This document shows positions 4,700 to 30,435 of a DNA stretch of 64,000 nucleotides, in pieces. The notes beneath the pieces are model-generated. The model was given only the letters and a program-made list of their open reading frames with translations, made no database searches and was not told the DNA's origin. Made by a program: the position numbers and the translations under genes. Within the stretch, counting starts at the first letter, position 1; every line of letters begins with the position of its first letter. The DNA comes from Patescibacteria group bacterium. GTDB taxonomy: Bacteria > Patescibacteriota > Patescibacteriia > 2-02-FULL-49-11. The stretch covers positions 102-64,101 of the forward strand of contig JBAZQN010000010.1 of the NCBI GenBank assembly GCA_041645165.1, in the 5' to 3' direction.

Positions 4700-4704
4700 T
4701 CACT

Positions 4705-6447: not shown

Positions 6448-6530
6448 TTAAGGAAACCACCCCATCCCCTTCCCGCGTCAAGCTCGGGACAGGCTCTTAG
6501 TAAGGAGGGGACGTGAGGGAAGGTCTCTGT
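6448..6530 (+). repeat. Conserved ~80-nt leader element, full-length copy
   Basis: The 45-nt core is near-identical to the reverse complement of 12887-12940. Contains AAGGAGG followed by a 13-codon GTG-initiated mini-ORF. Confidence 0.45.
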
Positions 6531-6600
6531 GATGTGATTGAAATTCCGATGTAATGAGTTTTGGAAAATAACGATCATTATTTAATAAACACGCAGCCTT

Positions 6601-7089: not shown

Positions 7090-7090
7090 A

Positions 7091-7150
7091 ATTTTCAATG
7101 CTCAATTTCTCCCCCTACGAGAGATCTCCCGAAGGGAGACAATTTTCAAA
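7091..7150. repeat. ~60-bp intergenic repeat ATTTTCAATGCTCAATTTCTCCCCCTACG.G.GATCTCCCGAAGGGAGACAATTTTCAA (G/C-tract palindrome family)
   Basis: Near-identical at 53201-53260 and, inverted, at 51146-51205. Confidence 0.7.
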
Positions 7151-7245
7151 TAATTCTCAATGCATCAATATTTCAATGTTTGAAAATTGAATCATTGGAG
7201 CATTAATTGTAAATTGAGAATTGGAAATTGAAAATTTTATCATGT

Positions 7246-7317
7246 GCGCCCGTCGTTCAATGGATAGGACACAAGATTGCGGATCTTGTAATGCAGGTTC
7301 AATTCCTGCCGGGCGCA
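7246..7317 (+). tRNA. tRNA-Arg (anticodon GCG)
   Basis: Acceptor GCGCCCG/CGGGCGC. Anticodon stem CAAGA/TCTTG with loop TTGCGGA. T-loop GGTTCAATTCC. Confidence 0.7.
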
Positions 7318-7371
7318 AAAAGTGCGGGGTGAAATTCCCTGCAAGGACAACGATTGGCCTTATAATGATAG

Positions 7372-7400
7372 AAACCCTAGGTAGGGGGTTTTTATTTTTA
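7372..7400 (+). terminator. Probable intrinsic terminator after tRNA-Arg
   Basis: CCCTA-GG-TAGGG hairpin followed by GGTTTTTATTTTTA. Confidence 0.5.
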
Positions 7401-7427
7401 TACTAAAATGCCTGACTAATCGAATTT

Positions 7428-7531
7428 GTCATTCCTGATTTAATCAGGAATCCAGAAACAAAAATACGCAAAAACGTTCGTGGTGTCGGTTTTTATTTTC
7501 TTCTCTGGATTCCCGCTTTCGCGGGAATGAC
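7428..7531. mobile_element. ORF-less hairpin-bounded mini-element (GTCATTCC-hairpin-GGAATCCAGAAA ... TTCTCTGGATTCC-hairpin-GGGAATGAC)
   Basis: Same termini as the GIY-YIG-carrying elements at 15526-15897 and 19158-19612 and as the copy inside tsaC at 44401-44498. The left 25 bp recur at 56306-56330. Confidence 0.6.
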
Positions 7532-7559
7532 GACGGGGAAATCGAAAATGGAGTAGCAG

Positions 7560-10328
7560 TTGAGTATAGTTGATAATTTCATCCAACCGCCGCATACTGA
7601 TAACATGAATACCCTTTCTCTTTCTGATTCTCTTGCAGAACTCGGGCCCATGGGAAAACGGCTGAGCTCCCGTTTGAAGAGCCTCGGCATTATGAGCATC
7701 GAGGATCTGCTCTTTCACTATCCCTTCCGCTACGAGGACTGGTCTCGAGTTCTGCCTATCAAAAATCTCATCCCCGGCATGCAAGCCACGGTGAGCGCGA
7801 CGGTAAAAACTATTTCATTCCGTCCCGGGCGATGGAAGATAAAACCGCTCATTGAAGCGCTCCTTGAGGACCAGAACGGCGATCACATTCGCGCGGTATG
7901 GTTCAACGCGTCATACCTTATTAAAACCCTTACCCCGGGCACCGCGCTTCTGCTTTCCGGAAAAATTGACCGCTCAAAAGACGCGCTCCAACTCACCCAT
8001 CCCGTATGGGAAAAAAACACAACTCACGCCCCAATGCATACCGCGCGTATTATCCCGATTTATCATGCGACGAACACCATAAGCCAAAAACAGATCCGCT
8101 CGCTTATGGCAGTTTCTCTTCAAAATATCCCCTCCATCCCTGATCCGCTTCCCTCGTGGATAGCGTCAGGCGCCAAAATCATCCCTCTTGATCGCGCGAT
8201 CCGCGCCATCCATTTCCCGTCCACGTGGGCGGCTTTGAGTGCGGCGCAAACGCGGCTGAAATTCGACGAATTATTCCTTTTACAACTGCGCAGCGCGCTT
8301 GCCCGACAGGAGCTTACTGCGCTTAAAAGTACCCCCATTCCGTTCCATGAGACTCTTACGCGCACATTCGTTGCCCGTCTCCCTTTCAAGCTCACCACCG
8401 CACAGAGAAAAGCCGCCTGGGAAATTATTAAAGACCTCGGGAAGGGCAAGCCGATGAACCGCCTCCTGGAGGGCGATGTGGGATCGGGAAAGACCGTGGC
8501 CGCCGCCATTGCCGCCTTAAATGTGATTGCGAGCGGCCATCAGGTCGCCTATCTTGCGCCCACCGCCATACTCGCGGCACAGCAGTTCGCGACGTTTTGC
8601 CGTCTTTTTTCCGACACCCCCCTATGTCCCCCCCTTACGAAGGGGGGGAACGGGGGGGTCTTCACCATCGCGCTCATCACGCAGGGGGATATCAGGGTGA
8701 ATAAAATTCAAAGTTTCCCGCCTCAGCGGGATCCCGCATACCTTAGAGAATCAGATTCAAGGGGCGGGACAAAACCCAAAGTTCAAAATGAGAGAGGGTA
8801 TAAAAAAATTTCTAAGCAGGAGCTTGCAGTACTGTTAAGAAAAGGGAGAGTCGACATTTCGATTGGCACACATGCTTTACTTTCTGAACATATCCAATTT
8901 CAAAAACTGGCACTGGTCATCGTCGATGAACAGCACCGTTTCGGCGTCAACCAGAGAGCTGCGCTCCTGCGCAGATCAGCGCAGATAAAAACGCAGATAG
9001 ACGCAGATGCTGATGACTTTCTATATAAGGAATTGACATATCAAATAAGAGGAGCAGCATTTGAAGTGGCAAATAGCTTAGGCCTCGGTTTGAAAGAAAA
9101 TGTGTACCAAAAAGCACTTGAAGAATCATTAAAACAAAAAAGGCTCTTATATGAGCGAGAAAAATCAATTAATGTCTCATTCCACGATACGCGCGTGGGC
9201 AGCTTTAAGCCTGATTTTATTATTGACCAAAAGGTTATCGTAGAACTTAAAGCACTACCTTTTATTGGTAAAATTGAAGAAAAGCAACTCTGGAGTTACC
9301 TCAAAGGTTCAAATTACAAAGTTGCGTTACTCATCAATTTTGGCAACGATAAACTGGATATCAGAAGAATAATCTACGACACCGCGAGAGATAAAACGCC
9401 CCAACCGTCACCAAATCAGCATGCATCTGTGATTAATCAGCACATGTCTGCATCAAGTGATCTGCGACCATCTGCGTCTCATCTGCGTGAATCTGCGTAT
9501 GTGCCGCATCTGTTGTCCATGACCGCCACTCCCATTCCCCGTTCGCTTGCGCTGGTCGCCTACGCGGACCTAGATTTGTCAATCATCAATGAGCTGCCCA
9601 AAGGCCGCGCGCCGATTACCACTAAAATCATCCCGCCTGAACAACGGCAAGACGCGTATAATCTCATCAAGCAAGAGCTCTCATCCGGTCATCAAGCATT
9701 TATCATTTGCCCGCTCATTGATCCTTCCGATGCCTTAGGCGTGAAATCGGTGAAAGAGGAAGCAGAGCGCTTGAAACGAGAACACTTCCCCCATGTGAAT
9801 CTCGCCGCGCTCCATGGCCGCATGACGCCTGCGTCAAAAGACAAGATCATGGGCGCGTTTGCACAAGGAAGTATCCAGGTGCTGGTATCCACGCCAGTGG
9901 TCGAAGTGGGCATTGACGTGCCGAATGCCACGGTAATCCTTATAGAAAGCGCAGAACGGTTTGGGCTGGCGCAACTCCATCAGCTCCGCGGCCGGGTGGG
10001 AAGGAGCACCCACTCCTCGTGGTGCTTGCTCGCGACCGAAACAGAACAAGAGGAGGCGTTGAAACGCCTCCACGCGGCGGTCTCCTCCCGCGACGGCTTT
10101 GCGCTCGCCGAAATTGACCTAGAGATGCGCGGACCGGGAGAAGTGTACGGCACCCAGCAATCCGGCTTCCTCGACACTTTAAAAATCGCCAAGCTTACCG
10201 ATGTCATCATCCTTAAGCAATCAAAAGAGACGGTTGCCCGCCTCCTCCAAGAAGATCCCGCGCTTTCCCGCTACCCCTTACTCCAGCGCCGCCTCGCCGT
10301 ATTCGAGGAATCAGTGCATTTTGAATAG
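7560..10328 (+). CDS. recG: ATP-dependent DNA helicase RecG carrying three in-frame repeat or domain insertions
   Basis: Wedge N-terminus. Walker A GDVGSGKT. DEQH. TATPIPRS. RGRVGR. 922 aa against the ~700 typical of RecG, which is my recollection rather than a measured comparison. Confidence 0.85.
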   Translation: MSIVDNFIQPPHTDNMNTLSLSDSLAELGPMGKRLSSRLKSLGIMSIEDLLFHYPFRYEDWSRVLPIKNLIPGMQATVSATVKTISFRPGRWKIKPLIEALLEDQNGDHIRAVWFNASYLIKTLTPGTALLLSGKIDRSKDALQLTHPVWEKNTTHAPMHTARIIPIYHATNTISQKQIRSLMAVSLQNIPSIPDPLPSWIASGAKIIPLDRAIRAIHFPSTWAALSAAQTRLKFDELFLLQLRSALARQELTALKSTPIPFHETLTRTFVARLPFKLTTAQRKAAWEIIKDLGKGKPMNRLLEGDVGSGKTVAAAIAALNVIASGHQVAYLAPTAILAAQQFATFCRLFSDTPLCPPLTKGGNGGVFTIALITQGDIRVNKIQSFPPQRDPAYLRESDSRGGTKPKVQNERGYKKISKQELAVLLRKGRVDISIGTHALLSEHIQFQKLALVIVDEQHRFGVNQRAALLRRSAQIKTQIDADADDFLYKELTYQIRGAAFEVANSLGLGLKENVYQKALEESLKQKRLLYEREKSINVSFHDTRVGSFKPDFIIDQKVIVELKALPFIGKIEEKQLWSYLKGSNYKVALLINFGNDKLDIRRIIYDTARDKTPQPSPNQHASVINQHMSASSDLRPSASHLRESAYVPHLLSMTATPIPRSLALVAYADLDLSIINELPKGRAPITTKIIPPEQRQDAYNLIKQELSSGHQAFIICPLIDPSDALGVKSVKEEAERLKREHFPHVNLAALHGRMTPASKDKIMGAFAQGSIQVLVSTPVVEVGIDVPNATVILIESAERFGLAQLHQLRGRVGRSTHSSWCLLATETEQEEALKRLHAAVSSRDGFALAEIDLEMRGPGEVYGTQQSGFLDTLKIAKLTDVIILKQSKETVARLLQEDPALSRYPLLQRRLAVFEESVHFE
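8616..8661 (+). repeat. G/C-tract palindromic mini-insert inside recG, in frame (encodes ..PLCPPLTKGGNGG..)
   Basis: CACCCCCCCTATGTCCCCCCCTTACGAAGGGGGGGAACGGGGGGGTC. Same family at 15079-15117, 47275-47316 and 59489-59531. Confidence 0.7.
8715..8775 (+). repeat. CGGGATCCCG-core ~60-bp repeat unit inside recG, in frame
   Basis: TTCCCGCCTCAGCGGGATCCCGCATACCTTAGAGAATCAGATTCAAGGGGCGGGACAAAA. Same family at 15428-15490, 23123-23183 and 43921-44028. Confidence 0.65.
8958..9500 (+). mobile_element. In-frame insertion in recG encoding a GxxExxY (PD-(D/E)XK-like) domain, bounded by inverted heptamer arrays (CGCAGAT x4 on the left, ATCTGCG x4 on the right)
   Basis: Left array 8971-9009 and right array 9459-9497, period about 10-11 bp. 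The encoded segment LTYQIRGAAFEVANSLGLGLKENVYQKALEESL...VELKAL...LINFG has the hallmarks of the GxxExxY family and lies between the DEQH and TATPIPRS motifs. Confidence 0.6.
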
Positions 10329-11472: not shown

Positions 11473-11490
11473 AATTGAATTACACCGTTC

Positions 11491-11511
11491 GTTCAATCTT
11501 GCAGATTGAAC
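11491..11511. repeat. REP hairpin GTTCAATCT-TGC-AGATTGAAC plus conserved 3' flank
   Basis: The ~60-nt unit CGTTCGTTCAATCTTGCAGATTGAACGATTGTTTTTATCG.CGAACA..CCGGTA is also at 30436-30500 and 41497-41561. Confidence 0.75.
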
Positions 11512-11598
11512 GATTGGTTTTATCGCCGAACAGGCCGGTAATGCACATAATATCCAAGGATAGAGGCAGACGGTCGAATGGCTGATCAACTCTGCGGA

Positions 11599-11730: not shown

Positions 11731-12864
11731 CTATCGAAATACTGTTTCAGGATAACATCTGCAACCTGACAATGATGAAGTACACCTGGTATAAATAGGG
11801 CCTGAAAATTCCTTCCCGCACCACTCACCATAATTACATTCACTATCAATCGTGCATACCCTACTGGGGTCCTTTTCACACTTCCATACTTCTTCACCGG
11901 ATCGAACATTTGTATAGCTCCTTGTACATTTATCAAATGGGGTACGACACCATAACGTGTAATCGTTAGTACCGTACTTACAGACCTCTCCATGCTTAAT
12001 ATGGCACCTTCGGCTCGTGCCCGACACATCGCAATACATCTGTATCATAAGACCGTCATCTCGATACTCCGGGCATCCCTGATCTTCCGCATTAACCTCA
12101 CAAGGATCACCTGGTTCAACTAATTCACAAATCCCAAGATCTCCAATTTCTTTATAACAGAAATTATAGAAAGGTGCGTCCGGAATCGAGGAATCTCTCT
12201 TAGATCTACATTCGATATTAGTCCTACATCCATCCAAGCACGCTTGTTTCTCAAAAGAACACACACAGGGCGGATTAGGACACTCGTTGCACGGCTCCCC
12301 TGTTGATTTAAACCCATTAGGAGATCCATTAGCATCAACCGTAACGCACGTATCAGCCGATGTGCCGGTGAGCGGCGAAAGCGTAGCGGGAGTTGCGCAC
12401 TTTTCCGTCGCCTTATACGCCCTGCACGGCGTGATCCACCACGCGTCATTTGAGAAAATGGTGGCAGGCTTGCCTTCGGTTGGAATGCCTTTGAGTGAAA
12501 TAATAATCCAGTTGGGCCATACCCATGCGGCAAGCAGGATGATGAATAACCCCACCACAGTGCCGGTTACCATCTTTTTGCCTTTTTCCACCTCTTCTGC
12601 CTTGCCTTGAGACATAAGAAGGCTAAATCCCCCGTAAATAAACAACGCAAGCGCAATAGCACCACAGAGCGACAGTAAAAACCTCACCCCTTTGCTTGCG
12701 ATGAGTAAAAGGTCGCACAGCGAACATGCGCCGCATGTAAAACAGTCAGTAGCTACTGCCTCTTTGGAAAAAAAGCTGTACGCCTGCGCAGAAAAAACGG
12801 AGTAACTAAACACTCCAACAATTATTAATAAGATGATAAGTATTGGTTTTCTTAAACTAGGCAT
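11731..12864 (-). CDS. Membrane protein with a VirB2/TrbC-like pilin module and a Cys-rich C-terminal ectodomain
   Basis: Helix-loop-helix AIALALFIYGGFSLLMSQGKAEEVEKGKKMVTGTVVGLFIILLAAW, then more than 40 Cys in about 250 aa. Confidence 0.45.
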   Translation of the reverse strand: MPSLRKPILIILLIIVGVFSYSVFSAQAYSFFSKEAVATDCFTCGACSLCDLLLIASKGVRFLLSLCGAIALALFIYGGFSLLMSQGKAEEVEKGKKMVTGTVVGLFIILLAAWVWPNWIIISLKGIPTEGKPATIFSNDAWWITPCRAYKATEKCATPATLSPLTGTSADTCVTVDANGSPNGFKSTGEPCNECPNPPCVCSFEKQACLDGCRTNIECRSKRDSSIPDAPFYNFCYKEIGDLGICELVEPGDPCEVNAEDQGCPEYRDDGLMIQMYCDVSGTSRRCHIKHGEVCKYGTNDYTLWCRTPFDKCTRSYTNVRSGEEVWKCEKDPSRVCTIDSECNYGEWCGKEFSGPIYTRCTSSLSGCRCYPETVFR

Positions 12865-12886
12865 AAATTAACGAAACCGCCCCTCA

Positions 12887-12955
12887 AGTCCCCTCCTTGC
12901 TAAGAGCCTGTCCCGAGCTTGACGCGGGAAGGGGATGGGGAGGTATCTCCTTAGT
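12887..12955 (-). repeat. Conserved leader element (minus orientation) immediately 5' of the 11731-12864 gene
   Basis: Reverse complement matches 6462-6515 almost exactly. Confidence 0.45.
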
Positions 12956-13035
12956 AAAAAAGATTGTCGTGCCAGAGGCAGATCAGCCCATGGCTGAAAA
13001 TTCCGATACGATAAATTAAATCCTAAAGAGCCGCC

Positions 13036-14541
13036 TCATGGGGTGATAACTTCATTATCTCCAGAATTTTGCCCACCTACCGTATATACGCCTGGCGGAC
13101 AATGCGATGACTGATGGGTTCCAAGATCCTGGCCTGACTCAAAATGCCACCACTCTTCGCAAAACCGATCTAAGCCCACTTCATTCATCTTCGCTTGGAA
13201 CTCCTTGACCACGGGACCCGTGGGCGGGGTGCCGCTAGGCGGTGTGTAAGCTCTGGTAAGCATATTGCATGCGGCGTCATTAATTACCCCTGAAGGTAAA
13301 ATGCCGCTTGATATTTCAAGGCACACGTCTACCGCATACCCTGCCTGGTGCGGCGCGTCGCATGAAGGCACTGCCGCTTTATTGCAACCTGTACAACTAT
13401 ACGGACAACTGGGAGGGGTAGGTACGCTGTAATCATAGCACCCTCGCAAGCCAGCCTGGTTCGCCATGGAGCGGTACGCCGAATTGATGACAAGCGTGAA
13501 TTTCACATTCGAGCTTTTCCAACTATTTTCTCCTTTAAGCCAATCTTCAAGCTTTTTATTATTAAGTTTCGCTATCACTTGAGACATAAGCCGCGGCGGC
13601 TGTTCCACCTGGCTATTATCAACGCGGATAGGTGCCTTGGGGAATACTGTGGGGTCCGCGATCGATAGAAAATTAGGCGACGATTCTGTCTTGGTGCACG
13701 CCTGCGGGCCGAAATTCATATTCACATTAGTCGCTTGCGATTTTACGTCTTCCAGAGTGCTCAATGCGGTATCAAACTCCACAAGACGCGGGTTGATGGT
13801 GTAAAAGAGCAGATAAGAGGTAAGCGCGATGATGAGCCCGGTGATGGCGCCCATGATGGTGCTTTTCGCGCTCGTGATTTTTTCAGGCGACCCGCCTGCC
13901 ATGAGGTACTGGAACCCGCCGATCATGATGCCAATCACCGCAAGAAGCCCTATGGACGCGATGATGAAATAATAAAGGCCGGCAATGTACTCGCCAATTG
14001 TTTTACTGCTCAAGTCAATGCTCCTCCCCGCGACAAAATCCGTGCCGGGAATAGATATTTGGGGTTTAAATTTAATTGCTTCGCGCGGTTTAGGTTCAAT
14101 ATACACTTTCAATTCGCCGCCGCCGGAAGGAACAAACGCCTGCACCGATTGTTTCACGTCCGGACACGCGCACTGGCCTGGATCTTGGTAATTGCACGCA
14201 TAGTATAAGCCATTCTGGGTTTTAACGCCTTTCACGGTTATCTCCCCTTTTACGGAACCTGCACTTACTATATTCTGCTTAGCTCCAGTATACGATTCAT
14301 AAATCAACGTTTGCCCACATTCACCTGGTTGGAGACCGCTAAAACAAATGTTTTTAACCTTATCATCTGTCTTTACGTTTTGCCCTAATAGAGCATTACT
14401 TTCAGCCGCTTGCGGATCATTAAGCTGGCACACGCAACACTGCGCGCTGGCAGCAAGGGGGAAAAAATGGATACCAACAATGCCTGTTATGAAAATTATT
14501 GAGAGAATTACCTTCTGTATCCTTAAACGGCAATATAACAT
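13036..14541 (-). CDS. Fusion protein: Cys-rich N-terminal region, VirB2/TrbC-like pilin module, and C-terminal M15 (VanY-like) peptidoglycan peptidase
   Basis: Pilin module IGIMIGGFQYLMAGGSPEKITSAKSTIMGAITGLIIALTSYLL. M15 motifs SAYRS, HQAGYAVDV, EEWWHFE. Confidence 0.6.
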   Translation of the reverse strand: MLYCRLRIQKVILSIIFITGIVGIHFFPLAASAQCCVCQLNDPQAAESNALLGQNVKTDDKVKNICFSGLQPGECGQTLIYESYTGAKQNIVSAGSVKGEITVKGVKTQNGLYYACNYQDPGQCACPDVKQSVQAFVPSGGGELKVYIEPKPREAIKFKPQISIPGTDFVAGRSIDLSSKTIGEYIAGLYYFIIASIGLLAVIGIMIGGFQYLMAGGSPEKITSAKSTIMGAITGLIIALTSYLLFYTINPRLVEFDTALSTLEDVKSQATNVNMNFGPQACTKTESSPNFLSIADPTVFPKAPIRVDNSQVEQPPRLMSQVIAKLNNKKLEDWLKGENSWKSSNVKFTLVINSAYRSMANQAGLRGCYDYSVPTPPSCPYSCTGCNKAAVPSCDAPHQAGYAVDVCLEISSGILPSGVINDAACNMLTRAYTPPSGTPPTGPVVKEFQAKMNEVGLDRFCEEWWHFESGQDLGTHQSSHCPPGVYTVGGQNSGDNEVITP

Positions 14542-14553: not shown

Positions 14554-15426
14554 TTAAAATTCAAGCTCTACTAACCTCTCAATCTTTTTCTCCGTAATCT
14601 CTCCCGTCAAACGGTAAGAATTTATAAACAGGGCAGGTATCCCGTCAATATCAAGCGCCTGCGCCTCATCCATGCCCTGATTCACAAGATCAGTGGTCGC
14701 GCGGGTTTCTACACAGCGGTTGAATTCTTCAAGATTAAGCCCTAATTCTGATGCTATTATACCATACTTCGACGCAGATGCTCGCAGATAAGACGCAGAT
14801 TCACGCAGATCGTCGTTCATGACTTCGTCACGGGTCAATTTATCTATAAATTCCCAAAATTTACCTTGATTTTGCGCGCAACGGGCGGCAAGGGCGGCGG
14901 GGCGGGAGGCAGGATCTAAAGGATTCGGGAAATCTTTCCATACCAGATGCGCAGATGGTCGCAGATAAGACGCAGATTCACGCAGATCGTCGCGGATATA
15001 CGCAGATATTTGTTTCACCGCATCGCGGCACACTTCAACCACATGGTCGCAAAATAATACGATATTGACTGGTTCGACACCCCCCTCTTGCATCTCCCCC
15101 CTTTCTAGGGGGGAGGATATTGCTGGCAACACCGGGTCAGTGGGCAATACCGTGGGCGCAAACGGCGTATCTTCGCGCAGAGGCGCTAAAGGTTTAACCA
15201 GCGTGATGAGGGGGTCGCTAAAGGTGCCTTGCGCGAAACTGTCAGAGGCAAGCTCTGACGCTACATTTTGATTTTGGACTACTCTCTCTTGTTGATCGTC
15301 TTGAGACGACACAATGAACCCGAGCGCGCTCTTCCCAACTGCAAGCGCTCCCAAACCAAGGACGGCGAGAGAGAACAGCGTAATAGTGAGCGTGCGCGGG
15401 TGTATTTTCATAACTTTAAATCTCAA
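14554..15426 (-). CDS. DsbA-like thioredoxin-fold thiol:disulfide oxidoreductase carrying repeat-derived in-frame inserts
   Basis: DsbA-like C-terminus GIPALFINSYRLTGEI. Signal/TM N-terminus. Two direct CGCAGAT arrays (14770-14815, 14948-15010) encode DDLRESASYLR twice. G/C-tract insert at 15079-15117. Confidence 0.5.
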   Translation of the reverse strand: MRFKVMKIHPRTLTITLFSLAVLGLGALAVGKSALGFIVSSQDDQQERVVQNQNVASELASDSFAQGTFSDPLITLVKPLAPLREDTPFAPTVLPTDPVLPAISSPLERGEMQEGGVEPVNIVLFCDHVVEVCRDAVKQISAYIRDDLRESASYLRPSAHLVWKDFPNPLDPASRPAALAARCAQNQGKFWEFIDKLTRDEVMNDDLRESASYLRASASKYGIIASELGLNLEEFNRCVETRATTDLVNQGMDEAQALDIDGIPALFINSYRLTGEITEKKIERLVELEF

Positions 15427-15427
15427 A

Positions 15428-15490
15428 TCCTCACCGCTCAGGCGGGATCCCGCATACCTTAGATAAAATAATTCAAAGTGCGGGACAAAG
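15428..15490. repeat. CGGGATCCCG-core repeat unit (intergenic)
   Basis: TCACCGCTCAGGCGGGATCCCGCATACCTTAGATAAAATAATTCAAAGTGCGGGACAAAG. Confidence 0.65.
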
Positions 15491-15525
15491 TTTAAAGCTC
15501 AAATGGATGACAAAACTGCACTAAT

Positions 15526-15897
15526 GTCATCCCGGGCTTGACCCGGGATCCAGAAATAACAATAACACTAAAAATCATCAGAAAGATCTTTCCATCCTGG
15601 ATTTACCTCCTCAATCAAACGCAATTTCCACGCCCGTTTCCACCGTTTCATTTGTTTTTCCCTCGTGATTGCCGCATAGATATCAGAAAATTCTTCATAG
15701 TACACCAGTGTATGTACGTGATATTGCCGGGTAAATCCTGGTACCGCTCCCACCTTATGCTCATCTACTCTGCGTCTAAGGTCGTTCGGTACTCCAACGT
15801 ACAAAGTTCCGTTTTTCTGACTCGCCATGATGTACACGTAATAACTCTGCATGATTTTTGTTTATTTTTTCTGGATTCCTGCCTGCGCAGGAATGAC
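15526..15897. mobile_element. Hairpin-bounded element carrying a GIY-YIG gene
   Basis: Left end GTCATCCCGGGCTTGACCCGGGATCCAGAAA. Right end TTTCTGGATTCCTGCCTGCGCAGGAATGAC. Same termini as the ORF-less copies at 7428-7531 and 44401-44498. Confidence 0.6.
15568..15852 (-). CDS. GIY-YIG nuclease family protein
   Basis: 94 aa, YVYIMASQKNGTLYVGVPNDLRRRVDEH. About 80% identical to the 19200-19484 paralog. Confidence 0.7.
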   Translation of the reverse strand: MQSYYVYIMASQKNGTLYVGVPNDLRRRVDEHKVGAVPGFTRQYHVHTLVYYEEFSDIYAAITREKQMKRWKRAWKLRLIEEVNPGWKDLSDDF

Positions 15898-15949
15898 AAT
15901 GACTGAAAATTGAACATTGAGAATTGAAAATTTCCACACTGTTCTGCTT

Positions 15950-17251
15950 CTATTTCAGTCTAATGCGATACACTTTCTCAAACGTTTCCAAGAAAAGCGA
16001 AGAATTGTCGGGCGTAAGGTAGAGCTTCCGCACATCCTTGATAGTCTGCACTCCTTCTTCCACCGGCACCGCAAGGCGGCGATTGATGCCATTGCCCAAA
16101 TCGGTGCTCCATACGGTATATGTAATCCCCCGCGCGGATTCAGGCACGAGTCCCGCCCCTGAGGGAAGCTCATCAGGCACGGCGCAATACACGGTCACGC
16201 TGTCCTCTCCAAAAGCGCAGCGATCCACCCATGTGGAGAGCCCGAGCGCATATTGGCGCGCGCCCGTCCGGTCGCCCCCGACATCCGCCACCCAGAGCAT
16301 AGGCTGGTACCCCGCGCCCGCAAGAGTGGTGGAATAGAGCACTCTTCTGCCGTCAGGGGACCAAATACCGGAGAAGCCAGACCCTTGCACCTCAAGCGAT
16401 TTAAAATTCTCTCCCTGCATACCTATGAAAAATACTTCTTCGCGGTCAATGCCAGTCGGCTTATGGTACGTGGCGACTACTTTGTAATCCGGAGACCATT
16501 GGGGAGCGACCAGCATACCGCGGTCGCCGGTTGCCTGTACCGCTTGGGCGCCGGTCCCGTCCACATTGGAAACCACGATCCAATTATCCCTTGCGCTGCC
16601 CGTCTCCAGCTTGTAAGAAATGGCTCCCCCGTCCGACCTGAAAGACGGCGCGGTCAGGTCTTTGGGGAGCACGGCCGTTTTTTTGGTGGTAAAATCATAA
16701 TACACATTCGATCCGTCTTCATACTCTAATATAGCGCTATCGCCTTGCGGCGCCCACACCACCTCTGAAACGCCTGGGAAAGATTCGTTCGCAAGCAGCC
16801 GTTTTCCACTGCCGTCGGCATTCACGCGGTAAAATTTGGTATCGGTCGGATTATAATAGCTCAAGCCTCCGCTGGGGCTCACGTCAATATTCATAGGAAA
16901 CCCTTCCACTACCGCCTCTGTGCGCGTTTCCCTGCCGCGCGCCACGTCGTCAACCACGGGCCGATAGCCGGTGCCTGTTGTCCCCCCTGTGGGTTCTCCT
17001 CCGCCTTCAATGGGTAATCCCCCTTCCACAGGTTGCCGCACTAGCCCTCCGGGTCCTTCGCCCGCGCGCGGCAGCGCGCCCACGCCGCCCTCTGGCGGTT
17101 TTACCCCGGGCACGTTAAAAAGCCGGAAACGCCAACCAATAAAAAGAATAATGGCGGCAGTGCCGATGATGCCGAAAATAATCAAGCCGACGCCGATGAG
17201 GAAACGAATGTTAAAACGAGGCATATTCAATTGATAAATTCCAAATCCCAA
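15950..17251 (-). CDS. Membrane-anchored TolB-like beta-propeller protein
   Basis: N-terminal TM helix. Gly/Pro-rich linker. Repeated W.P.G-type blades (VWAPQGDS, QWSPDYK, IWSPDGRRV). Confidence 0.55.
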   Translation of the reverse strand: MGFGIYQLNMPRFNIRFLIGVGLIIFGIIGTAAIILFIGWRFRLFNVPGVKPPEGGVGALPRAGEGPGGLVRQPVEGGLPIEGGGEPTGGTTGTGYRPVVDDVARGRETRTEAVVEGFPMNIDVSPSGGLSYYNPTDTKFYRVNADGSGKRLLANESFPGVSEVVWAPQGDSAILEYEDGSNVYYDFTTKKTAVLPKDLTAPSFRSDGGAISYKLETGSARDNWIVVSNVDGTGAQAVQATGDRGMLVAPQWSPDYKVVATYHKPTGIDREEVFFIGMQGENFKSLEVQGSGFSGIWSPDGRRVLYSTTLAGAGYQPMLWVADVGGDRTGARQYALGLSTWVDRCAFGEDSVTVYCAVPDELPSGAGLVPESARGITYTVWSTDLGNGINRRLAVPVEEGVQTIKDVRKLYLTPDNSSLFLETFEKVYRIRLK

Positions 17252-17345
17252 TGTCCAATTTCCAATAAAATCCCAAGCCCCAATTCACAATTGGATATTT
17301 GGATTTTATTTGACATTGGGATTTGGTCATTGGGATTTCCCGGCA

Positions 17346-18254
17346 TTAGCCGGGAAGTTTCTTCTCCTCTGGCTTTGCCGGGAGCTTAGTGGCGATCTCG
17401 GAACGATACCAGATATAAAAAACGGAAAACGTCAAGATCGGCAGAAAGCCAAGCAGCGGCACACAGTCAATTAATGTGGGCAAAAGCGACTTTATAATCC
17501 GATCCGCAAATTCCATATTCTTGCGGCCAAGATAAAAAAAAGTGCAAAACCCCCACACCACTCCGATAATCCAAGTTAAAACCTGACCCAATGAAAGCGT
17601 TCCAATGTCAATCAAATCCTTGACAAGCGCCAATGATATCAGGAATCCCCACATGAATGTCGAATGATCTTTCGCTTGTATCCCCTGCTGTTTTTTTTTG
17701 CGCTTCAAAAACGCTTTCGCTTTATTCTTTAACCCCTTTTCTTTTTTCCATGCCTGCCGCTGCTTGTCATTCAAACGCTTGAAAGCCGCCTCTCTCTCCG
17801 CCATCATGCCCATGCCGCGATTGATTCCCACCCCGCTCTTTGCCAAGGCTCCAAAATTTTTTCCTAATACACTTCCCGCATTCCCGCCCGCTAATATCCC
17901 CAAAGCCCCCACTCCCAGCCTACGTCCTAAACCGCCCTGAGCCATACTAGCCACCCTCTTTTCGTTCTGCTTATCACGCGCAAGCTTCTGCGCATACTGC
18001 TGTTGTTGTTGTTCCTTATCGCGCTCTGCCTTGCGCTGGCGCATATTATCCAGAAATCCCTGCTTTTGACCTTCCGGCTGGCGTTGTCCGGTCGCGGCGT
18101 ATTGCCTATCATCTTTATTCTTCGCTTGCGTGCCGCCTGCTCCGCCAACAAATCCCCCACTACCAGAGAAAGCACCTCTCCCTTGATACGCATCCTTCAT
18201 TGCCTTCTTCATTGCTTTGCTGGGAATATTCGATTTTGCTTCCGTATCGGCCAT
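17346..18254 (-). CDS. Hypothetical membrane protein (Gly/Lys-rich N-terminal half, C-terminal TM helices)
   Basis: 302-aa ORF in the minus-strand block. C-terminal hydrophobic helices. Confidence 0.4.
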   Translation of the reverse strand: MADTEAKSNIPSKAMKKAMKDAYQGRGAFSGSGGFVGGAGGTQAKNKDDRQYAATGQRQPEGQKQGFLDNMRQRKAERDKEQQQQQYAQKLARDKQNEKRVASMAQGGLGRRLGVGALGILAGGNAGSVLGKNFGALAKSGVGINRGMGMMAEREAAFKRLNDKQRQAWKKEKGLKNKAKAFLKRKKKQQGIQAKDHSTFMWGFLISLALVKDLIDIGTLSLGQVLTWIIGVVWGFCTFFYLGRKNMEFADRIIKSLLPTLIDCVPLLGFLPILTFSVFYIWYRSEIATKLPAKPEEKKLPG

Positions 18255-18304
18255 ACCAGTATTATTAGTTTTTTACCGCCGCACATGATGGTAATATTCA
18301 ATCC

Positions 18305-18411
18305 GTAGCGTCGGAGCTCGTCTCCGACATCCGTGGTGGCAGACAAGCTGCCACGCTACAATTCCGCGGTTTCAGTCTGCAAGACTGAACCAACTTCTGC
18401 AAGACTGAACC
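18305..18411. repeat. Composite intergenic repeat: three-stem element (GTAGCG[GTCGGAG..CTCCGAC][GTGGCAG..CTGCCAC]CGCTAC) plus tandem REP hairpins plus ATCTGC repeats
   Basis: Three-stem unit also at 36432-36486 (reverse complement) and partly at 30515-30595. REP hairpins at 18370-18390 and 18395-18411. Confidence 0.6.
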
Positions 18412-18429
18412 AACGTTGGTCATTCTGCG

Positions 18430-19104
18430 TTAATCTGCTTCTACTTGCCGCCAATAGGCTCCTGACACCTTCCACATCCCTTCTTCTTTCGTCATGCGTA
18501 AATCAAGTTCCTGATAAAATACCTTTGTATTTCCTCCTGTCCCCTGCATTTGGACACGCTGGGTAGTAACGACATAAGACGCCGATCCTTGACTCGGATC
18601 AAATTGCTGTTCCTTCACGTTCAGCGCCTTCGTGCGCACTCCAAGATATACCGATGGGTCTGCCTGTGTAACAATCTGCGCGCGCTCTTGTGAGAGCGCA
18701 TACGTTTGCATTGCCGCCGTCATGAAGGGAAGGAGCGTGCGGATATTGGAAACGTCCTGCTGGTTCGAGTAGCTGCCCCACCGTTCCGCAAACACACTGC
18801 TAAGCTGGAGAAGATCGCTCTTCAATTGCACTAAAGGATCAGGAGGCGGCGCAGGAGCGCGATTGGCGGCGGGCGCGGGAGCAGCGTTTGATGCGGGCGT
18901 GGGGGTGGGGGATGTTGCCTGCGGAGCTGCGGGAGAAGGCTGCTTTTGCACCGATTCAATCAATGCTTTCGTATCGGAGGGGGGAGGCGCAATTGTTCTG
19001 CGTGCAACAAAAAAGTACGCAAAGGCGGCAATCAATACAAAGCTGGAAAATATTAGCAATAATTTAATTTTAGAGGACATACGGTACGATATATAACATA
19101 ACAT
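18430..19104 (-). CDS. Hypothetical membrane-anchored protein (Pro/Ala-rich linker)
   Basis: 224-aa ORF. TM helix LLLIFSSFVLIAAFAYFFV. Confidence 0.4.
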   Translation of the reverse strand: MLCYISYRMSSKIKLLLIFSSFVLIAAFAYFFVARRTIAPPPSDTKALIESVQKQPSPAAPQATSPTPTPASNAAPAPAANRAPAPPPDPLVQLKSDLLQLSSVFAERWGSYSNQQDVSNIRTLLPFMTAAMQTYALSQERAQIVTQADPSVYLGVRTKALNVKEQQFDPSQGSASYVVTTQRVQMQGTGGNTKVFYQELDLRMTKEEGMWKVSGAYWRQVEAD

Positions 19105-19157
19105 TCAAGATTCATTTTAATTTTCAATTTCAAATTATTCAGTCGGCCTCTTCACTT

Positions 19158-19612
19158 GTCATCCCCGACTAGGTCGGGGATCCAGAAAAAACAATAACAT
19201 TAAAAATCATCAGAAAGATCTTTCCATCCTGGATTTACCTCCTCAATCAAACGCAATTTCCACATACGTTTCCATTTCTTTAATTGTTTCTCTCGCTGGA
19301 TGGCAATTTTTATATCAGTGTATTCCTCATAGTAGACCAGCAAATGTATGTGATATTGTTGGGTAAATCCCGGTATCAGTCCATTCTTATGCTCATCTGC
19401 TCTGCGTCTAAGATCGTTGGTTACCCCAATGTACAACGTCCCATTTTTCTGGCTTGCCATGATGTACACATAGTAACTCTGCATGATTTTTGTTTATTTT
19501 TTCTGGATTCCTGCTGGAGTTTATCCCGTACCGCGATACGGGGCAGGAATGACGAGATAGGGTGGATTCCTGTAGGAGTTTACCTCGTACTGCGATACGG
19601 GGCAGGAATGAC
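19158..19612. mobile_element. Hairpin-bounded element carrying a GIY-YIG gene; right terminus duplicated
   Basis: Left end GTCATCCCCGACTAGGTCGGGGATCCAGAAAAAA. Right end CTGGATTCCTG...GGGGCAGGAATGAC occurs twice (19503-19553, 19562-19612). Confidence 0.55.
19200..19484 (-). CDS. GIY-YIG nuclease family protein
   Basis: 94 aa. Paralog of 15568-15852. Confidence 0.7.
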   Translation of the reverse strand: MQSYYVYIMASQKNGTLYIGVTNDLRRRADEHKNGLIPGFTQQYHIHLLVYYEEYTDIKIAIQREKQLKKWKRMWKLRLIEEVNPGWKDLSDDF

Positions 19613-19749
19613 AGCGATTTGTGAACCCCTCCCTGCGGCAGAGACCGCAGGGCATCAGGTCTTACGGCAAGGATGGTTATCATCCCTGTGGCAAAGACCA
19701 CAGGGTATTCACGTAAATAAATTAGCATTGAAAATTTATCGATCGTTGG

Positions 19750-21660
19750 CTACTTCCCTGCAGCAACGGCCGGCGCTCCTTCCTGCTCCAGCGTCTGGTT
19801 AAACTGGCGCTTTGCCTCCTCGATTTCCAAAAGCTGGCGCGGGTCAGAGGTGATGATCTGGTCTTCTGTATAGGAGGCAACCACCTTGATGGCCGCGTGC
19901 TTGCTGCCCGCGAAGAAAATGCCTTCGCCCACGCCGCTCTCGAGCAGCAGATACCGCTCGCCCTGGGTGAGCAAGAATACTTTCGACACCGCATCCACGG
20001 CAGAGGGCGATTGACGGAGCAGTATCTGGAGCCCGGAATTATTTACAATCGCCTGTCCATAGGGTGAACCTAAAAAGTCGTTCACATCCTGCGTAATAGT
20101 GGTCAAACCCAGGTAGTATTTGCGGCAACGCTTTGCCAAGGCGTAGATGAATTTTGCCGAATCCTCATGCTGCATGAGCCACCATGCCTCGTCGATCACG
20201 AGAATGCGCTTCTTAATGGAGGAACGGACGACATTCCAGATGAAATTAATAATAGTATAAATCGCCATGGGCCGCAGTTCATCTTCGAGGTCCCGCACCG
20301 AGAACACCACGAGCTGGTTATTGAGATTGATGTTCGTGCGATTATTGAGAAGCCCCGCAAACGTGCCTTCAGTGTATTTTTTTAGGCGCAGCGCCACGTC
20401 ATCACCGCCCTCCATGCCGCGCAAAATGTCTTCTAGGTCTGAAAGCACCGGCATCTCCGCGTGAGTAAGATCCGAAGAAGGGGTAATATCCTTTTTCGCA
20501 TACGTCTCAAGGATTGCGCGGTCGAGGAGCGAATCTTCCTGATGCGAGAGCTCCCCAATCATGATCCGGATAAGCCCTTTCAAAGTGATCACCGCCGAGC
20601 GGATGATGTCGCCCGCCTTCAAATCTTCTCCTATGGCGCGAGGAAGGTCAAAAGGATTAATCTTGCTGTCGGAATTCAGGGAGATATTGATATAGGTGCC
20701 TCCCACCGCCTGCGCCAGATACTGGTATTCTCGCTCTGGGTCAATAATGATAATCTCCGTGCCGAACATGAGCGAGCGCAGGATTTCAAGCTTAATGGCA
20801 TACGACTTGCCCGCGCCTGATGTGGCGAAGACTACCATGTTTGCATTAGGGAGCGAAAAACGGTCAAAAAGGATGAGGGAGTTATTATGGCGGTTGATAC
20901 CGTAAAGGACGCCATTGTCGCTCGAGAGTTCAGAAGAGACGAAGGGGAAGGATGACGCGGCAGGAGAAGTATTCATATTGAAACTGACGCCCAGCTCGTC
21001 TATTCCCAGAGGCAGCGTTGAATTAAATCCCTGCTCCGCCTGCCACGTGGCGCGCCGGGTAAATACCAGCTTCGATCCGATAACGCTTTCTACCCTCTCC
21101 GTAAGCCTGTTAAGCTCCTTTATATTTGATGAGTATAAGGTGATATACAGCGCGCATTGGAAGAAATGCTCCGTTCCTTGCGTAATATCGTCCCGCAATT
21201 TTTCAATATCCTGGAGCGCAGTCTCCCGCACCGGGTCGCGAGGCGCCCCTTTCTCCCTGTCAGCAGAAAGCTGCGCTTCCAGCACCCCCACCTTGTTCCT
21301 CAATTGTTTTAAGATAATCTCTGGCTCTATGGGATAAAAAAATATTCCCACGTCAAAAGTGGCGCTCATGTCAATAATAGGCTCAAACCACCCCACCGAG
21401 ACATAGCGAGGATATGTCACCACGAAAAGCGTGCGCACAAACATACCCCCCAGCTCCAAATGATCTGACTGCACCCGGAGGGAAGAAGGCGCGATAAAAT
21501 CGCGGATAGATACGGTCCCCTCGCGATACACCTTTTCCGCGCGCAGGAGCTCCTCGGAGGGAAGCGCTGTTTTTTCAACCCGCGACACATCCGCATTCGC
21601 TTCCTGCGCAGGACGGGGCGCTTTCGCCGATTGAGATCGTTTCTTTAAGAAGTTGAACAT
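19750..21660 (-). CDS. virB4: Type IV secretion/conjugation ATPase, VirB4/PrgJ family (C-terminal ATPase part)
   Basis: Walker A GAGKS. Typical VirB4 C-terminal architecture. Confidence 0.8.
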   Translation of the reverse strand: MFNFLKKRSQSAKAPRPAQEANADVSRVEKTALPSEELLRAEKVYREGTVSIRDFIAPSSLRVQSDHLELGGMFVRTLFVVTYPRYVSVGWFEPIIDMSATFDVGIFFYPIEPEIILKQLRNKVGVLEAQLSADREKGAPRDPVRETALQDIEKLRDDITQGTEHFFQCALYITLYSSNIKELNRLTERVESVIGSKLVFTRRATWQAEQGFNSTLPLGIDELGVSFNMNTSPAASSFPFVSSELSSDNGVLYGINRHNNSLILFDRFSLPNANMVVFATSGAGKSYAIKLEILRSLMFGTEIIIIDPEREYQYLAQAVGGTYINISLNSDSKINPFDLPRAIGEDLKAGDIIRSAVITLKGLIRIMIGELSHQEDSLLDRAILETYAKKDITPSSDLTHAEMPVLSDLEDILRGMEGGDDVALRLKKYTEGTFAGLLNNRTNINLNNQLVVFSVRDLEDELRPMAIYTIINFIWNVVRSSIKKRILVIDEAWWLMQHEDSAKFIYALAKRCRKYYLGLTTITQDVNDFLGSPYGQAIVNNSGLQILLRQSPSAVDAVSKVFLLTQGERYLLLESGVGEGIFFAGSKHAAIKVVASYTEDQIITSDPRQLLEIEEAKRQFNQTLEQEGAPAVAAGK

Positions 21661-23058: not shown

Positions 23059-23122
23059 AAACTTTGATAAATCCTAAACTCTCTCGCTACGCGAGATCTG
23101 GCGTAGCCAGATAAATCCGAAA

Positions 23123-23183
23123 TCTCCCGCCCAGACGGGATCCCGCAAACATTAAATTAAGTAAATTCATAGTGCGGGACTAA
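23123..23183. repeat. CGGGATCCCG-core repeat unit
   Basis: TCTCCCGCCCAGACGGGATCCCGCAAACATTAAATTAAGTAAATTCATAGTGCGGGACTAAAC. Confidence 0.6.
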
Positions 23184-25349: not shown

Positions 25350-26813
25350 TTACTTTTCTTTTATTGCATCCATCCACTTAAACTCGCCCGTTTGTAAATC
25401 ACCATACGCCAAATGCGCGTACTCTTCTTCCCCCGCTTTTCTGCATTCATTGCTTAACGTGAGGACAACCAGCTTCGCCGATTCTTCCGGCAATTTCAAA
25501 CGTTCGATCAAAATATGCTTCAAAAACGCCAAGAGGTGTTTCGCCGCCGCCGGATCTTGCTTGAATTCCTCTATTTGGGATCTGTCCCGCTCCTTGTATG
25601 TTGTTTTCAAGGGTAAGCGGGATCCCGCCTGAGCGGGAGAATTTGGGATTTGGGATTTTTCGATTTGGTGTTCCCAATACCGCTGATATCGAGCGGAAAT
25701 CCCCACCGTTGTTTTAAGCGTCTTCCTTCGACCAAGCTCCCAAAGTGTCGCAATGACTTGAGGGATTTGACTACGGTTAATGCCACTAAAAAATTCTTCC
25801 TCTAGTTCGATCGATCCGAGGGGCTCTTCTCTTTTCACATTTTCCTCTAATTGTTTAAGCGCCTTCTGAATGACAGGTTCCTCCGTCCACTTACGATATT
25901 GCTCAATCATCTTGTCTGCAGGAGAGGTAACTCCCAGCTCTTTCATCGCCGCTTCTCGCTTCTCTTTAAATTCATCTTCAATCGCTTTCATCGCAAGCTC
26001 GGTCAATCGCTTGTATTCTGCATACTGCCCAGGAGGGATCTCCTCAAGTTTTCCTTCCTTGAGCGTCACAGGCTTCCCATCCTTAACCGCAGAGACCGTC
26101 TCCTCGAGACCCTCAAGAGTAGCGGAAGACAGCGGGAGCTTATCGCGCAACATCAGTATCATGCGAACGCGTATTTTTTCATTTTCTGGAAGCCGTACAA
26201 TACTAGAACCCTTGGTGAGATATGCTGAACGCTTGAACGCGTCAGCATATCCCGTCCCGACATTAGAAATGTAATCTTTAATCCAATTTTCTATGGTCGG
26301 CGTTGCTTCACGGCCGCCAAGGAGAGGACCTTGAGCGGTAATACGCTCCTGGCTGCGTATAAGGGTATCTAAAAGCCTTTGTTTTATCTCATCTCTCCTT
26401 TTATAGCTATATTCTTTCTGCACAAACGCTTTTACTGCATCCATGCTCTCTTTGCCATGAATATCCAGTACGAGCCCCAAATGGGCATTAAATAATTCTG
26501 TTACTTCATCTAATTCAAGAAGAGGAACACAAATAGCGCGGCATACCCACATCATATTCGTTATCTTCTGGTATGCTTCCGGATACTTCATGAGCAAATC
26601 CGGATACCCTTTAAGGAGCAGCTTAAACGCCCGTAGCTGCTCAAACGCATCTTCCATCATCACGAACTCGCGGAGGTAAGCTACATACTCGTCATATTGC
26701 GCGAGCGCCTCCGTATTCACAAATGTTTCCACGGGCGGGGGCGCCGTGAGGTTACCGGCATCCTGTACTTCATCAGGCTGCGCCAGAGGAGTAAGTTGTG
26801 GTTCATCTGCCAT
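25350..26813 (-). CDS. Hypothetical protein
   Basis: 487-aa ORF. No recognised domain. Confidence 0.4.
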   Translation of the reverse strand: MADEPQLTPLAQPDEVQDAGNLTAPPPVETFVNTEALAQYDEYVAYLREFVMMEDAFEQLRAFKLLLKGYPDLLMKYPEAYQKITNMMWVCRAICVPLLELDEVTELFNAHLGLVLDIHGKESMDAVKAFVQKEYSYKRRDEIKQRLLDTLIRSQERITAQGPLLGGREATPTIENWIKDYISNVGTGYADAFKRSAYLTKGSSIVRLPENEKIRVRMILMLRDKLPLSSATLEGLEETVSAVKDGKPVTLKEGKLEEIPPGQYAEYKRLTELAMKAIEDEFKEKREAAMKELGVTSPADKMIEQYRKWTEEPVIQKALKQLEENVKREEPLGSIELEEEFFSGINRSQIPQVIATLWELGRRKTLKTTVGISARYQRYWEHQIEKSQIPNSPAQAGSRLPLKTTYKERDRSQIEEFKQDPAAAKHLLAFLKHILIERLKLPEESAKLVVLTLSNECRKAGEEEYAHLAYGDLQTGEFKWMDAIKEK

Positions 26814-30413: not shown

Positions 30414-30435
30414 GAATGGTTATCGGTTTCACGTG

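Follow-up and report, generated by a model that had tools for sequence, protein, structure and literature searches.

The Ssn proteins were characterised in 2025 as the first site-specific endonucleases acting on single-stranded DNA (ssDNA) only (Chenal et al., Nat Commun 16:2388, PMC11893778). They are defined as single-domain GIY-YIG proteins of ~94 aa (CDD cd10448), and the characterised enzymes come from Neisseria and Wolbachia. SsnA of Neisseria meningitidis binds NTS (CGTCATTCCCGCGMAVGCGGGAATCYRG), a repeated 28-nt hairpin that includes the classical dRS3 repeat; the hairpin is bound solely as ssDNA, and the strand is cut a few nt 5' of it. The more general SRM motif lies beside 71% of Ssn homologs on at least one side and beside 42% on both sides, Rickettsia is among the genomes with more than 300 SRMs, and only 2% of NTSs are located within genes (PMC11893778). 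Here we describe a 64-kb stretch of a Patescibacteria metagenome-assembled genome (MAG; contig JBAZQN010000010.1), hereafter the window, in which two GIY-YIG genes are each enclosed by inverted hairpins and similar hairpin pairs occur without a gene, once in frame within tsaC. These ORFs and hairpins are very probably Ssn/SRM modules. We further suggest, with less confidence, that the modules are selfish cassettes resembling insertion sequences (IS) and that the ORF-less pairs are derivatives of the kind known as MITEs (miniature transposable elements with inverted repeats).

The IS-like layout NTS-ssnA-NTS, the analogy with IS200/IS605 and REP/RAYT, and domestication were all raised in PMC11893778. 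Because that paper likens NTS-ssnA-NTS to an IS and raises domestication, the central idea of our finding has already been published. Since 2000, inverted pairs of dRS3 with a 50-150 bp spacer between them have been known from Neisseria as NIMEs (dRS3-RS-dRS3 units; PMC1797815). The original prediction for this DNA, which assigned the arrangement to no known family, was therefore mistaken on that point. Literature searches on GIY-YIG combined with MITE, REP, COG2827 or RPE gave nothing relevant, and the combination of dRS3 and GIY-YIG led to PMC11893778.

The ssn genes and their hairpin termini

The features of the two cassettes are as follows.

15568 to 15852, minus strand: ssn copy 1, 94-aa single-domain GIY-YIG protein of the Ssn family (PF01541, E 3e-16)
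19200 to 19484, minus strand: ssn copy 2, 94-aa GIY-YIG protein (PF01541, E 2e-16)
15526 to 15897, minus strand: full cassette 1, 372 bp, ssn between an SRM hairpin and an inverted one, with homology running from GTCAT to ATGAC
15526 to 15556, plus strand: cassette 1 terminus 3' of ssn, GTCATCCCGGGCTTGACCCGGGATCC hairpin, 26-nt type plus AGAAA (SRM pattern match)
15868 to 15897, minus strand: cassette 1 terminus 5' of ssn, GTCATTCCTGCGCAGGCAGGAATCC hairpin, 25-nt type plus AGAAA (3 mismatches to NTS)
19158 to 19612, minus strand: full cassette 2 including the doubled right hairpin (hairpin scan and cassette comparison)
19158 to 19188, plus strand: cassette 2 terminus 3' of ssn, GTCATCCCCGACTAGGTCGGGGATCC hairpin (compensatory stem changes relative to copy 1)
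19500 to 19553, minus strand: cassette 2 terminus 5' of ssn, 49-nt long-loop SRM variant with a nested hairpin (hairpin at 19505-19553; fold -11.6 kcal/mol, z -4.4)
19564 to 19612, minus strand: tandem second copy of the long SRM variant, outside cassette 2 (stem-aware scan)

The two ORFs are paralogs, as had been predicted, with 82% protein identity and 81% DNA identity. The dN/dS between them is 0.17 (Nei-Gojobori), which indicates that both are kept as protein-coding genes under purifying selection. PF01541 spans residues 4-77 in both proteins, with no further domain. Residues Y7, Y18 and E65 are found in both copies, with a spacing equal to that of Y6, Y17 and E64 in N. meningitidis, and the 27 columns that do not vary among 31 aligned homologs are all retained. 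PF01541 was the only Pfam match (Y1_Tnp was absent), and no NCBIfam model scored above its cutoff. A recognised transposase (DDE, HUH, serine or tyrosine) is not encoded by the cassettes, in which the GIY-YIG domain alone was found. A PDB sequence search returned no Ssn structure, the nearest entry being the UPF0213 protein 1ZG2 (E 1e-3).

Family membership in PMC11893778 is defined by E < 1e-10 to Neisseria SsnA. We compared the window protein with two Neisseria gonorrhoeae chromosomes that are filed as plasmids in PLSDB and found a single homolog locus (L087, 1880219-1883485); the match in NZ_CP119142.1 is gapless, with 54% identity over 89 aa (tblastn E 3e-24, blastp E 8e-35). The gonococcal gene has 94 codons and carries Y6, Y17 and E64, the residues of the published SsnA mutants. 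Eleven NTS copies surround it, several of which form inverted pairs of ~108 bp like the gene-less pairs of the window. On account of its length, these residues and the flanking NTS arrays we take this locus to be ssnA. Its frame (L087 1486-1773) has no ATG, GTG or TTG at the expected start and begins GIICTVY, with ATT/ATA codons, while the ATG near the start is out of frame. Judging from the sequence, ssnA in NZ_CP119142.1 may be inactive or may use an unusual start.

Each ssn ORF is framed by inverted termini of the form GTCATYCC-stem-loop-GGRATCCAGAAA, with GTCAT outermost at both ends. In cassette 1 the distance between hairpin and ORF end is 20 nt on one side and 16 nt on the other; overall it is 12-20 nt. 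On the 3' side of the gene the terminus is a 26-nt hairpin whose loop is of the CTTGA/TAG type; on the 5' side it is of the 25-nt GCGMAVGC type or is its 49-nt long variant. The predicted anatomy of left and right termini thus holds for both elements, except that the right end of the second is the long-loop variant and is followed by a tandem copy. Homology between the cassettes, which are separated by 3.6 kb, spans exactly hairpin to hairpin, the flanks being unrelated, and similarity among copies begins precisely at (Y)GTCAT.

These hairpins are far more frequent in the window than expected. The pattern GTCATYCC-N8-30-GGRATCCAG has 7 matches versus 0 in shuffled sequences, GGAWYCCAGAAA with at most one mismatch has 9 versus 1.5 expected, and the published SRM search pattern finds four window termini versus 0.26 expected. 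Termini match the NTS consensus with 0, 1 and 3 mismatches, where none is expected. A stem-aware scan found nine hairpins in the 64 kb, and all nine lie within four units (the two cassettes and two gene-less pairs), none beside other genes. As ssDNA, the window termini are predicted to form hairpins much more stable than those of shuffled controls (z -3.4 to -4.7; -9.3 kcal/mol and z -3.7 for the 3' terminus of cassette 1). Rfam, searched at gathering thresholds over the whole window, reported three tRNAs alone and no family matching the hairpins. By analogy with SsnA, the flanking hairpins are the predicted cognate SRM/NTS recognition sites of the window Ssn proteins.

The association extends well beyond the window. 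A homolog scan with one genome per species gave at least 600 matching stretches, of which we examined the best 80 loci (82 genes, 80 species; 54-67% identity to the window copy). These best 80 include Omnitrophota, several Patescibacteria lineages, Nitrospirae, Planctomycetes, Bacteroidetes/Ignavibacteria, Verrucomicrobia, Actinomycetota, Chloroflexi, and Alpha-, Beta-, Gamma- and Deltaproteobacteria. Outward-facing hairpins are present on both sides of 38 of the 82 genes (46%) and on at least one side of 56 (68%), at median distances of 25 and 23 nt from the ORF, which reproduces the 42% and 71% given in PMC11893778. Inverted pairs without a gene, 66-130 bp long, were seen as well at ~17 of these loci.

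We aligned 89 hairpins of the 25-nt type from many phyla and found standard pairs at all stem positions. Variable positions vary by paired substitution only: position 5/20 is TA in 66 hairpins, CG in 17, GC in 3 and AT in 3, and position 8/17 is CG in 56, TA in 18 and GC in 15. GTCAT, ATCC and the next A (87/89) are fixed or nearly so, and the base before GTCAT is always a pyrimidine; further upstream no conservation was found in this set. At a Bdellovibrionales locus with two copies (L042) homology stops ~8-10 T-rich nt outside the hairpins. Fourteen of 2.9 million IMG/VR contigs encode an Ssn relative, some with a full SRM-ssn-SRM cassette, and curated phages gave matches of ~40% identity or less only. 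Phage vectors look unimportant for the cassettes.

Several observations concern the termini themselves. The 47-49-nt SRM variant, which has an inner hairpin nested in it and a conserved TAAACTCC-like segment, turns up in different phyla: besides 19505-19553 and 19564-19612 of the window we saw it in L081 (1212-1260), L016, L031, L043 and L002 (2846-2977). Long and 25-nt forms interconvert at the orthologous tsaC site (window versus L081). In L002 a short SRM is nested within the inner loop of a long one; such nesting may account for the 'half-site' GTCATTCCCG stutters outside many hairpins. The outer end of cassette 2 (ATGACA), together with AATAAT in the flank and a 17-nt spacer, makes an outward promoter-like site (19134-19162, minus strand) that points at a 224-aa ORF downstream; it amounts to one consensus match, at chance level.

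Gene-less pairs, the tsaC insert and other repeats

The same termini were predicted to occur without an ORF at two places, and both pairs are indeed present, with cassette polarity and subterminal sequence kept.

7428 to 7531, plus strand: mini A, ORF-less inverted SRM pair, 104 bp, intergenic, downstream of the tRNA at 7246-7317
44401 to 44498, plus strand: mini B, ORF-less inverted SRM pair, 98 bp, in frame within tsaC (SRM pattern, NTS match)
44094 to 44822, minus strand: tsaC/yrdC host ORF, 242 aa, intact, with mini B in a surface loop (PF01300, E 3e-42)

In both minis the termini face each other across a short A/T-rich spacer, with the 26-nt type at one end and the 25-nt type at the other, and the subterminal A-rich CCAGAAAYAAMAA and TTTTTYTTSTCTGGATTCC stretches are held in common with the cassettes. 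The right hairpin of mini A plus one base (7505-7532, minus strand) has 0 mismatches to the 28-nt Neisseria NTS consensus. Mini B and cassette 1 have identical left ends over the stretch GTCAT to CCAGAAA. As is characteristic of MITEs, the minis are short units without an ORF that carry the terminal inverted repeats of a coding parent, with its polarity and subterminal similarity. On sequence grounds they look like internal-deletion derivatives of the cassettes.

Mini B had been predicted to add 38 codons to tsaC without breaking the frame. The frame is intact, but the GTCAT...ATGAC unit is 98 nt long, which is not a multiple of 3, and it contributes ~33 residues (VIPAQAGIQ...KPGMT). Relative to insert-free orthologs the loop has gained ~45 residues, so some residues flanking the unit must be of other origin. 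The insert sits between the strands PGPLSLVLP and TLSLRISPHP (window strands 92-98 and 151-155). Its position on a YrdC structure, proposed earlier as a check, corresponds to a 10-residue loop in Pyrococcus Sua5 (6F87, 104-114). An AlphaFold2 model of TsaC built with 19 homologs has core pLDDT >90, while residues 109-145 score <50 and form no secondary structure; as modelled, mini B falls in a surface loop that is disordered. The protein retains both halves of PF01300 and all 22 residues that are invariant over the 19 aligned sequences.

Most tsaC orthologs are without the insert. Orthologs at 57-60% identity have a minimal loop (LPLRQ-GSG-TLSLR) and lack the extra residues, a finding that would have gone the other way had these been part of the ancestral protein; the insert residues are therefore not ancestral. 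The nearest ortholog (86% identity; L081 and L082, two independent assemblies) has the same element in the same place, with a hairpin of the 49-nt long variant that adds 24 nt and still keeps the frame. A relative at 74% carries a different hairpin repeat in the same loop, and further relatives carry other repeat-like inserts. We found no DNA-level empty tsaC site among the orthologs, the distant minimal-loop ones being too diverged. No stop codon interrupts four of the six frames of mini B, which makes an open frame through it unremarkable as such. At its 3' end the window tsaC differs from both relatives at 43 of 92 sites and is clearly recombinant.

Other housekeeping ORFs of the window also contain repeat-like segments in frame: LeuRS (47268-47318), KsgA/RsmA (43121-43165) and a DsbA-like ORF (14950-14991 and 14773-14814). 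Examples are NAPQPPLKVRGGEGELW (hairpin CCCCCTCTTAAGGTAAGAGGGGG), DICVNPRLNPRLSAL (ATCTGCG-type repeats) and DDLRESASYLRxSA, which occurs twice; relatives have similar repeat-like inserts in tsaC and in the DsbA-like gene. A 226-aa ORF (42278-42958) contains two ..PAQAGQ.. segments encoded by GC-rich CCTGCGCAGGC hairpins (e.g. 42782-42813), which resemble SRM stems without GTCAT and ATCC and could be decayed relics or a coincidence.

Further repeats are intergenic or dispersed. A second hairpin family, CCCGC..GCGGGATCCCGC..GCGGGACAA, lies between genes at 8704-8787, 15420-15503, 23113-23154, 25574-25646 and 43912-44012. The tsaC-ksgA spacer is 54 nt in L081 versus 190 nt in the window, and second-family copies are absent there. 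A third family, GTTCGTTCAATCTTGCAGATTGAAC with the related TTCAGTCTGCAAGACTGAACCAAC, occurs at 11483-11557, 30432-30506, 41496-41570 and 41649-41692, and also at 11599, 18371-18414, 30597 and 42219. Perfect or near-perfect inverted 27-28-mers pair 18335-18362 with 36429-36456 and 30515-30541 with 36459-36485. A 198-bp tandem repeat at 61758-62351 has three copies, two of them identical, and around it lie perfect 38-39-nt inverted repeats ~1.4-1.5 kb apart (61213-61251 / 62629-62667 and 61308-61345 / 62889-62926).

Turnover, proposed mechanism and alternative explanations

Near relatives hold other genes at the cassette sites. A neighbouring 433-aa protein is 95% identical in L086 and 83% identical in L085, where gene order is the same. 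A PF05635 gene ('23S rRNA IVP', four-helix bundle) without SRMs occupies site 1 in L086 and both sites in L085 (L085 7687-8079 and 11383-11763, L086 2408-2785; syntenic to window 19105-19749 and 15427-15949). Since near relatives hold PF05635 there, the cassettes have been gained or replaced on a short evolutionary scale. A search for empty sites in relatives, suggested with the original prediction, failed: the relatives lack the cassettes there, but other DNA fills the sites, which are not clean empty ones. The two unrelated small multi-copy gene families, ssn and PF05635, seem to alternate in the same intergenic slots.

Both ssn cassettes are housed in a cluster that resembles a type IV secretion system (T4SS), with a VirB4/TraG-type ATPase at 19750-21660; the syntenic locus L085 contains PrgI, TraC-like and T4SS-pilin genes (4344-7620 and 12836-14332). 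T4SS-type transfer works on ssDNA, the substrate of Ssn. This setting is compatible both with a mobile unit and with a domesticated nuclease.

If the window Ssn proteins behave as their homologs do, they would ignore duplex DNA and bind the hairpin when its strand becomes single-stranded, which might happen during replication, DNA uptake or T4SS-type transfer. They would then hydrolyse the strand a few nt 5' of GTCAT. As the hairpins are inverted with GTCAT outermost, this geometry places the predicted cuts just outside each end, on opposite strands. Ssn recognises a sequence carried by the element itself, which corresponds to the logic of a transposase and is unlike that of a homing endonuclease. 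The SRM-ssn-SRM cassette would be a selfish IS-like unit and the ORF-less pairs its internally deleted, MITE-like derivatives; cassettes and mini-pairs would both be gained and lost at the window sites, and mini B would have survived in tsaC by being stop-free, frame-keeping and placed in a disordered surface loop. Ssn cleavage might initiate movement or copying of the unit through a single-stranded stage, with joining by host repair or ligation, and we put this step forward tentatively. The original prediction had named the GIY-YIG protein as the candidate mobilising nuclease; homolog biochemistry (PMC11893778) backs its recognition of the ends, but mobilisation is a proposal.

Several observations weigh against mobility. 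No direct repeat that could be a target-site duplication (TSD) was found around any of the four copies, and comparison through the 433-aa neighbour revealed no precise excision or insertion junction of the cassettes in L085 or L086. The cassettes are only 81% identical and near-identical copies are lacking, so recent transposition is not demonstrated. We scanned a metagenome with the pattern ATCCAGAAACAAAAA-N15-45-TCTGGATTCC for sister copies of the minis and found none from the source population; the five matching loci comprise four chance matches in one conserved ORF and one unrelated mini (L088). Unrelated repeats occupy the tsaC loop in relatives, which makes it insertion-tolerant and not demonstrably a target. 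Over the insert and ~25 nt on each side the window differs from L081 at 3 of 161 sites versus 7.8% in the remaining gene (P ~0.001), which could reflect a recombination tract instead of constraint at the DNA level. Nucleases of the GIY-YIG superfamily act by hydrolysis, and we know of no strand transfer or covalent intermediate in this group. Finally, the sole tested role of an Ssn protein is the modulation of natural transformation in N. meningitidis (PMC11893778).

The strongest alternative, which we consider possible though rather unlikely, is a domesticated host system in which Ssn is a nuclease for ssDNA 'restriction' or for modulating recombination, trimming incoming or displaced single strands at SRMs, which are its chromosomal address tags. 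SRMs and ssn would then have spread through homologous or illegitimate recombination and horizontal transfer, and not through transposition catalysed by Ssn. In Neisseria transformation Ssn trims incoming NTS-bearing ssDNA, and a 5-fold change in transformation with NTS-bearing DNA is the only in vivo phenotype known for the family (PMC11893778). The location of both ssn copies in the T4SS-like cluster, the signs of recombination at the 3' end of tsaC (43/92) and the lack of TSDs fit such a system as well. It leaves unexplained, however, why gene and sites make up a discrete cassette with homology stopping at the hairpins, why the ORF-less pairs retain the polarity of the cassette ends, and why an address tag should lie inside an essential ORF; the PF05635 genes at the L086 and L085 sites also look like turnover of selfish cargo. 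The domesticated-nuclease and mobile-unit views are not mutually exclusive.

It is very improbable that the hairpins serve the GIY-YIG gene as ordinary cis-regulatory elements (an operator, attenuator or terminator) and that the other copies are coincidental. Their distance of 12-20 nt from the ORF ends does leave little room for a promoter inside the cassette. However, a promoter and terminator scan of 15300-19800 gave no terminator-like call or T-run at any terminus, and promoter-like matches were at chance level. Paired termini also exist without the gene, once between genes and once within an ORF, and a GIY-YIG gene of another, non-Ssn subfamily in L085 has no such hairpins. Invariance of the unpaired GTCAT and ATCC together with covarying stems fits recognition of an ssDNA hairpin by a protein, in agreement with the published binding. 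The possibility, considered with the original prediction, that these are generic promoter or terminator hairpins is thus not borne out, the hairpins being confined to the four units.

Even less credible is a free-standing GIY-YIG homing endonuclease (Seg/I-TevI-like) that cuts empty alleles and spreads by recombinational repair. It would account for the GIY-YIG domain and for a weak, sub-threshold match to TIGR01453, a model of group I intron endonucleases (E 5e-4 to 7e-5, 20-23 bits versus a cutoff of 56), but the protein has 94 aa only, with no DNA-binding extension, its homologs recognise, as ssDNA only, a sequence borne by the element and no empty target, and homing would not be expected to give rise to gene-less derivatives that have both ends. 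Equally hard to believe, despite a MAG contig from a repeat-rich genome, is an assembly artefact or a tsaC pseudogene, given the same insertion at the same site in the independent L081 and L082, a 24-nt difference that keeps the frame, an intact ORF, a confident fold outside the insert and 22 of 22 invariant residues.

Returning to selfish cassettes, a more far-reaching version holds that SRM-ssn-SRM units are autonomous transposable elements of an unrecognised class, in which a hydrolytic, ssDNA-specific GIY-YIG nuclease defines both ends through cuts just beyond the inverted hairpins and the host completes the movement. We regard this as doubtful. If true, gene-less SRM pairs (NIME-like and possibly the in-frame inserts resembling Rickettsia palindromic elements, RPEs) would be MITEs that colonise essential ORFs in frame.

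Comparison with described systems

The window reveals no new kind of system. Relative to the main text of PMC11893778, what is new is the Patescibacteria instance, the in-frame coding insert, the polarity of gene-less pairs and the replacement by PF05635. The window offers a compact natural test case for the mobilisation of hairpins by their own Ssn and for the choice of hairpin variant by each paralog, with two diverged Ssn paralogs that have their own hairpin variants, two polar gene-less pairs, one of them in an essential gene for tRNA modification, and other cargo in relatives. It bears on the role of Ssn outside Neisseria and on the origin of thousands of bacterial SRM/dRS3-type hairpins, and it demonstrates that SRM pairs can turn into protein-coding sequence, as RPEs do.

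With the published Ssn/SRM system the window shares the 94-aa single-domain GIY-YIG protein, the hairpin, the inverted NTS-gene-NTS layout, dispersed extra hairpins and a wide phyletic spread. It differs in its host, a Patescibacteria MAG from a group without mention in the PMC11893778 main text, in having two diverged paralogous cassettes, and in the arrangement of its hairpins as discrete inverted pairs with cassette end polarity. One of these pairs is translated in frame in tsaC, and in-frame inserts are undiscussed in that paper.

NIMEs (Bentley et al. 2007, PMC1797815), the described counterparts of the gene-less pairs, consist of inverted ATTCCC-N8-GGGAAT hairpin pairs around a 50-150 bp spacer of lower GC. 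The right arms of both minis fit dRS3 (ATTCCCGCGAAAGCGGGAAT and ATTCCCGCGCAGGCGGGAAT), whereas their left arms (the ATCCC/ATTCC 26-nt variant) do not. NIMEs occur in long arrays, have spacers of more than 100 families and were seen as recombination substrates and as phage integration sites (PMC1797815); the window pairs, in contrast, are solitary, and the ends of their spacers resemble the subterminal sequence of the ssn cassettes.

IS200/IS605 elements and REP/RAYT (REPtrons, BIMEs) also combine a small nuclease gene between its own hairpins with dispersed gene-less repeats, ssDNA recognition and no TSD. Ssn, however, is a hydrolytic GIY-YIG protein and not an HUH/Y1 transposase; with no HUH domain the window system is a member of neither group. 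IS200/IS605 has distinct left and right hairpins on one strand, whereas the window ends are true inverted repeats on opposite strands. RPEs (PMC10969869) are short palindromic repeats that lie in frame in housekeeping ORFs at fold-compatible positions, as mini B does. A link between RPEs and SRMs, compared here by behaviour alone, is possible, Rickettsia being SRM-rich in PMC11893778. Finally, the GIY-YIG homing endonucleases I-TevI and Seg share the catalytic fold and the tie to selfish DNA, but these bind DNA through a separate domain, cut an empty target in duplex DNA, and come with neither terminal hairpins nor gene-less derivatives.

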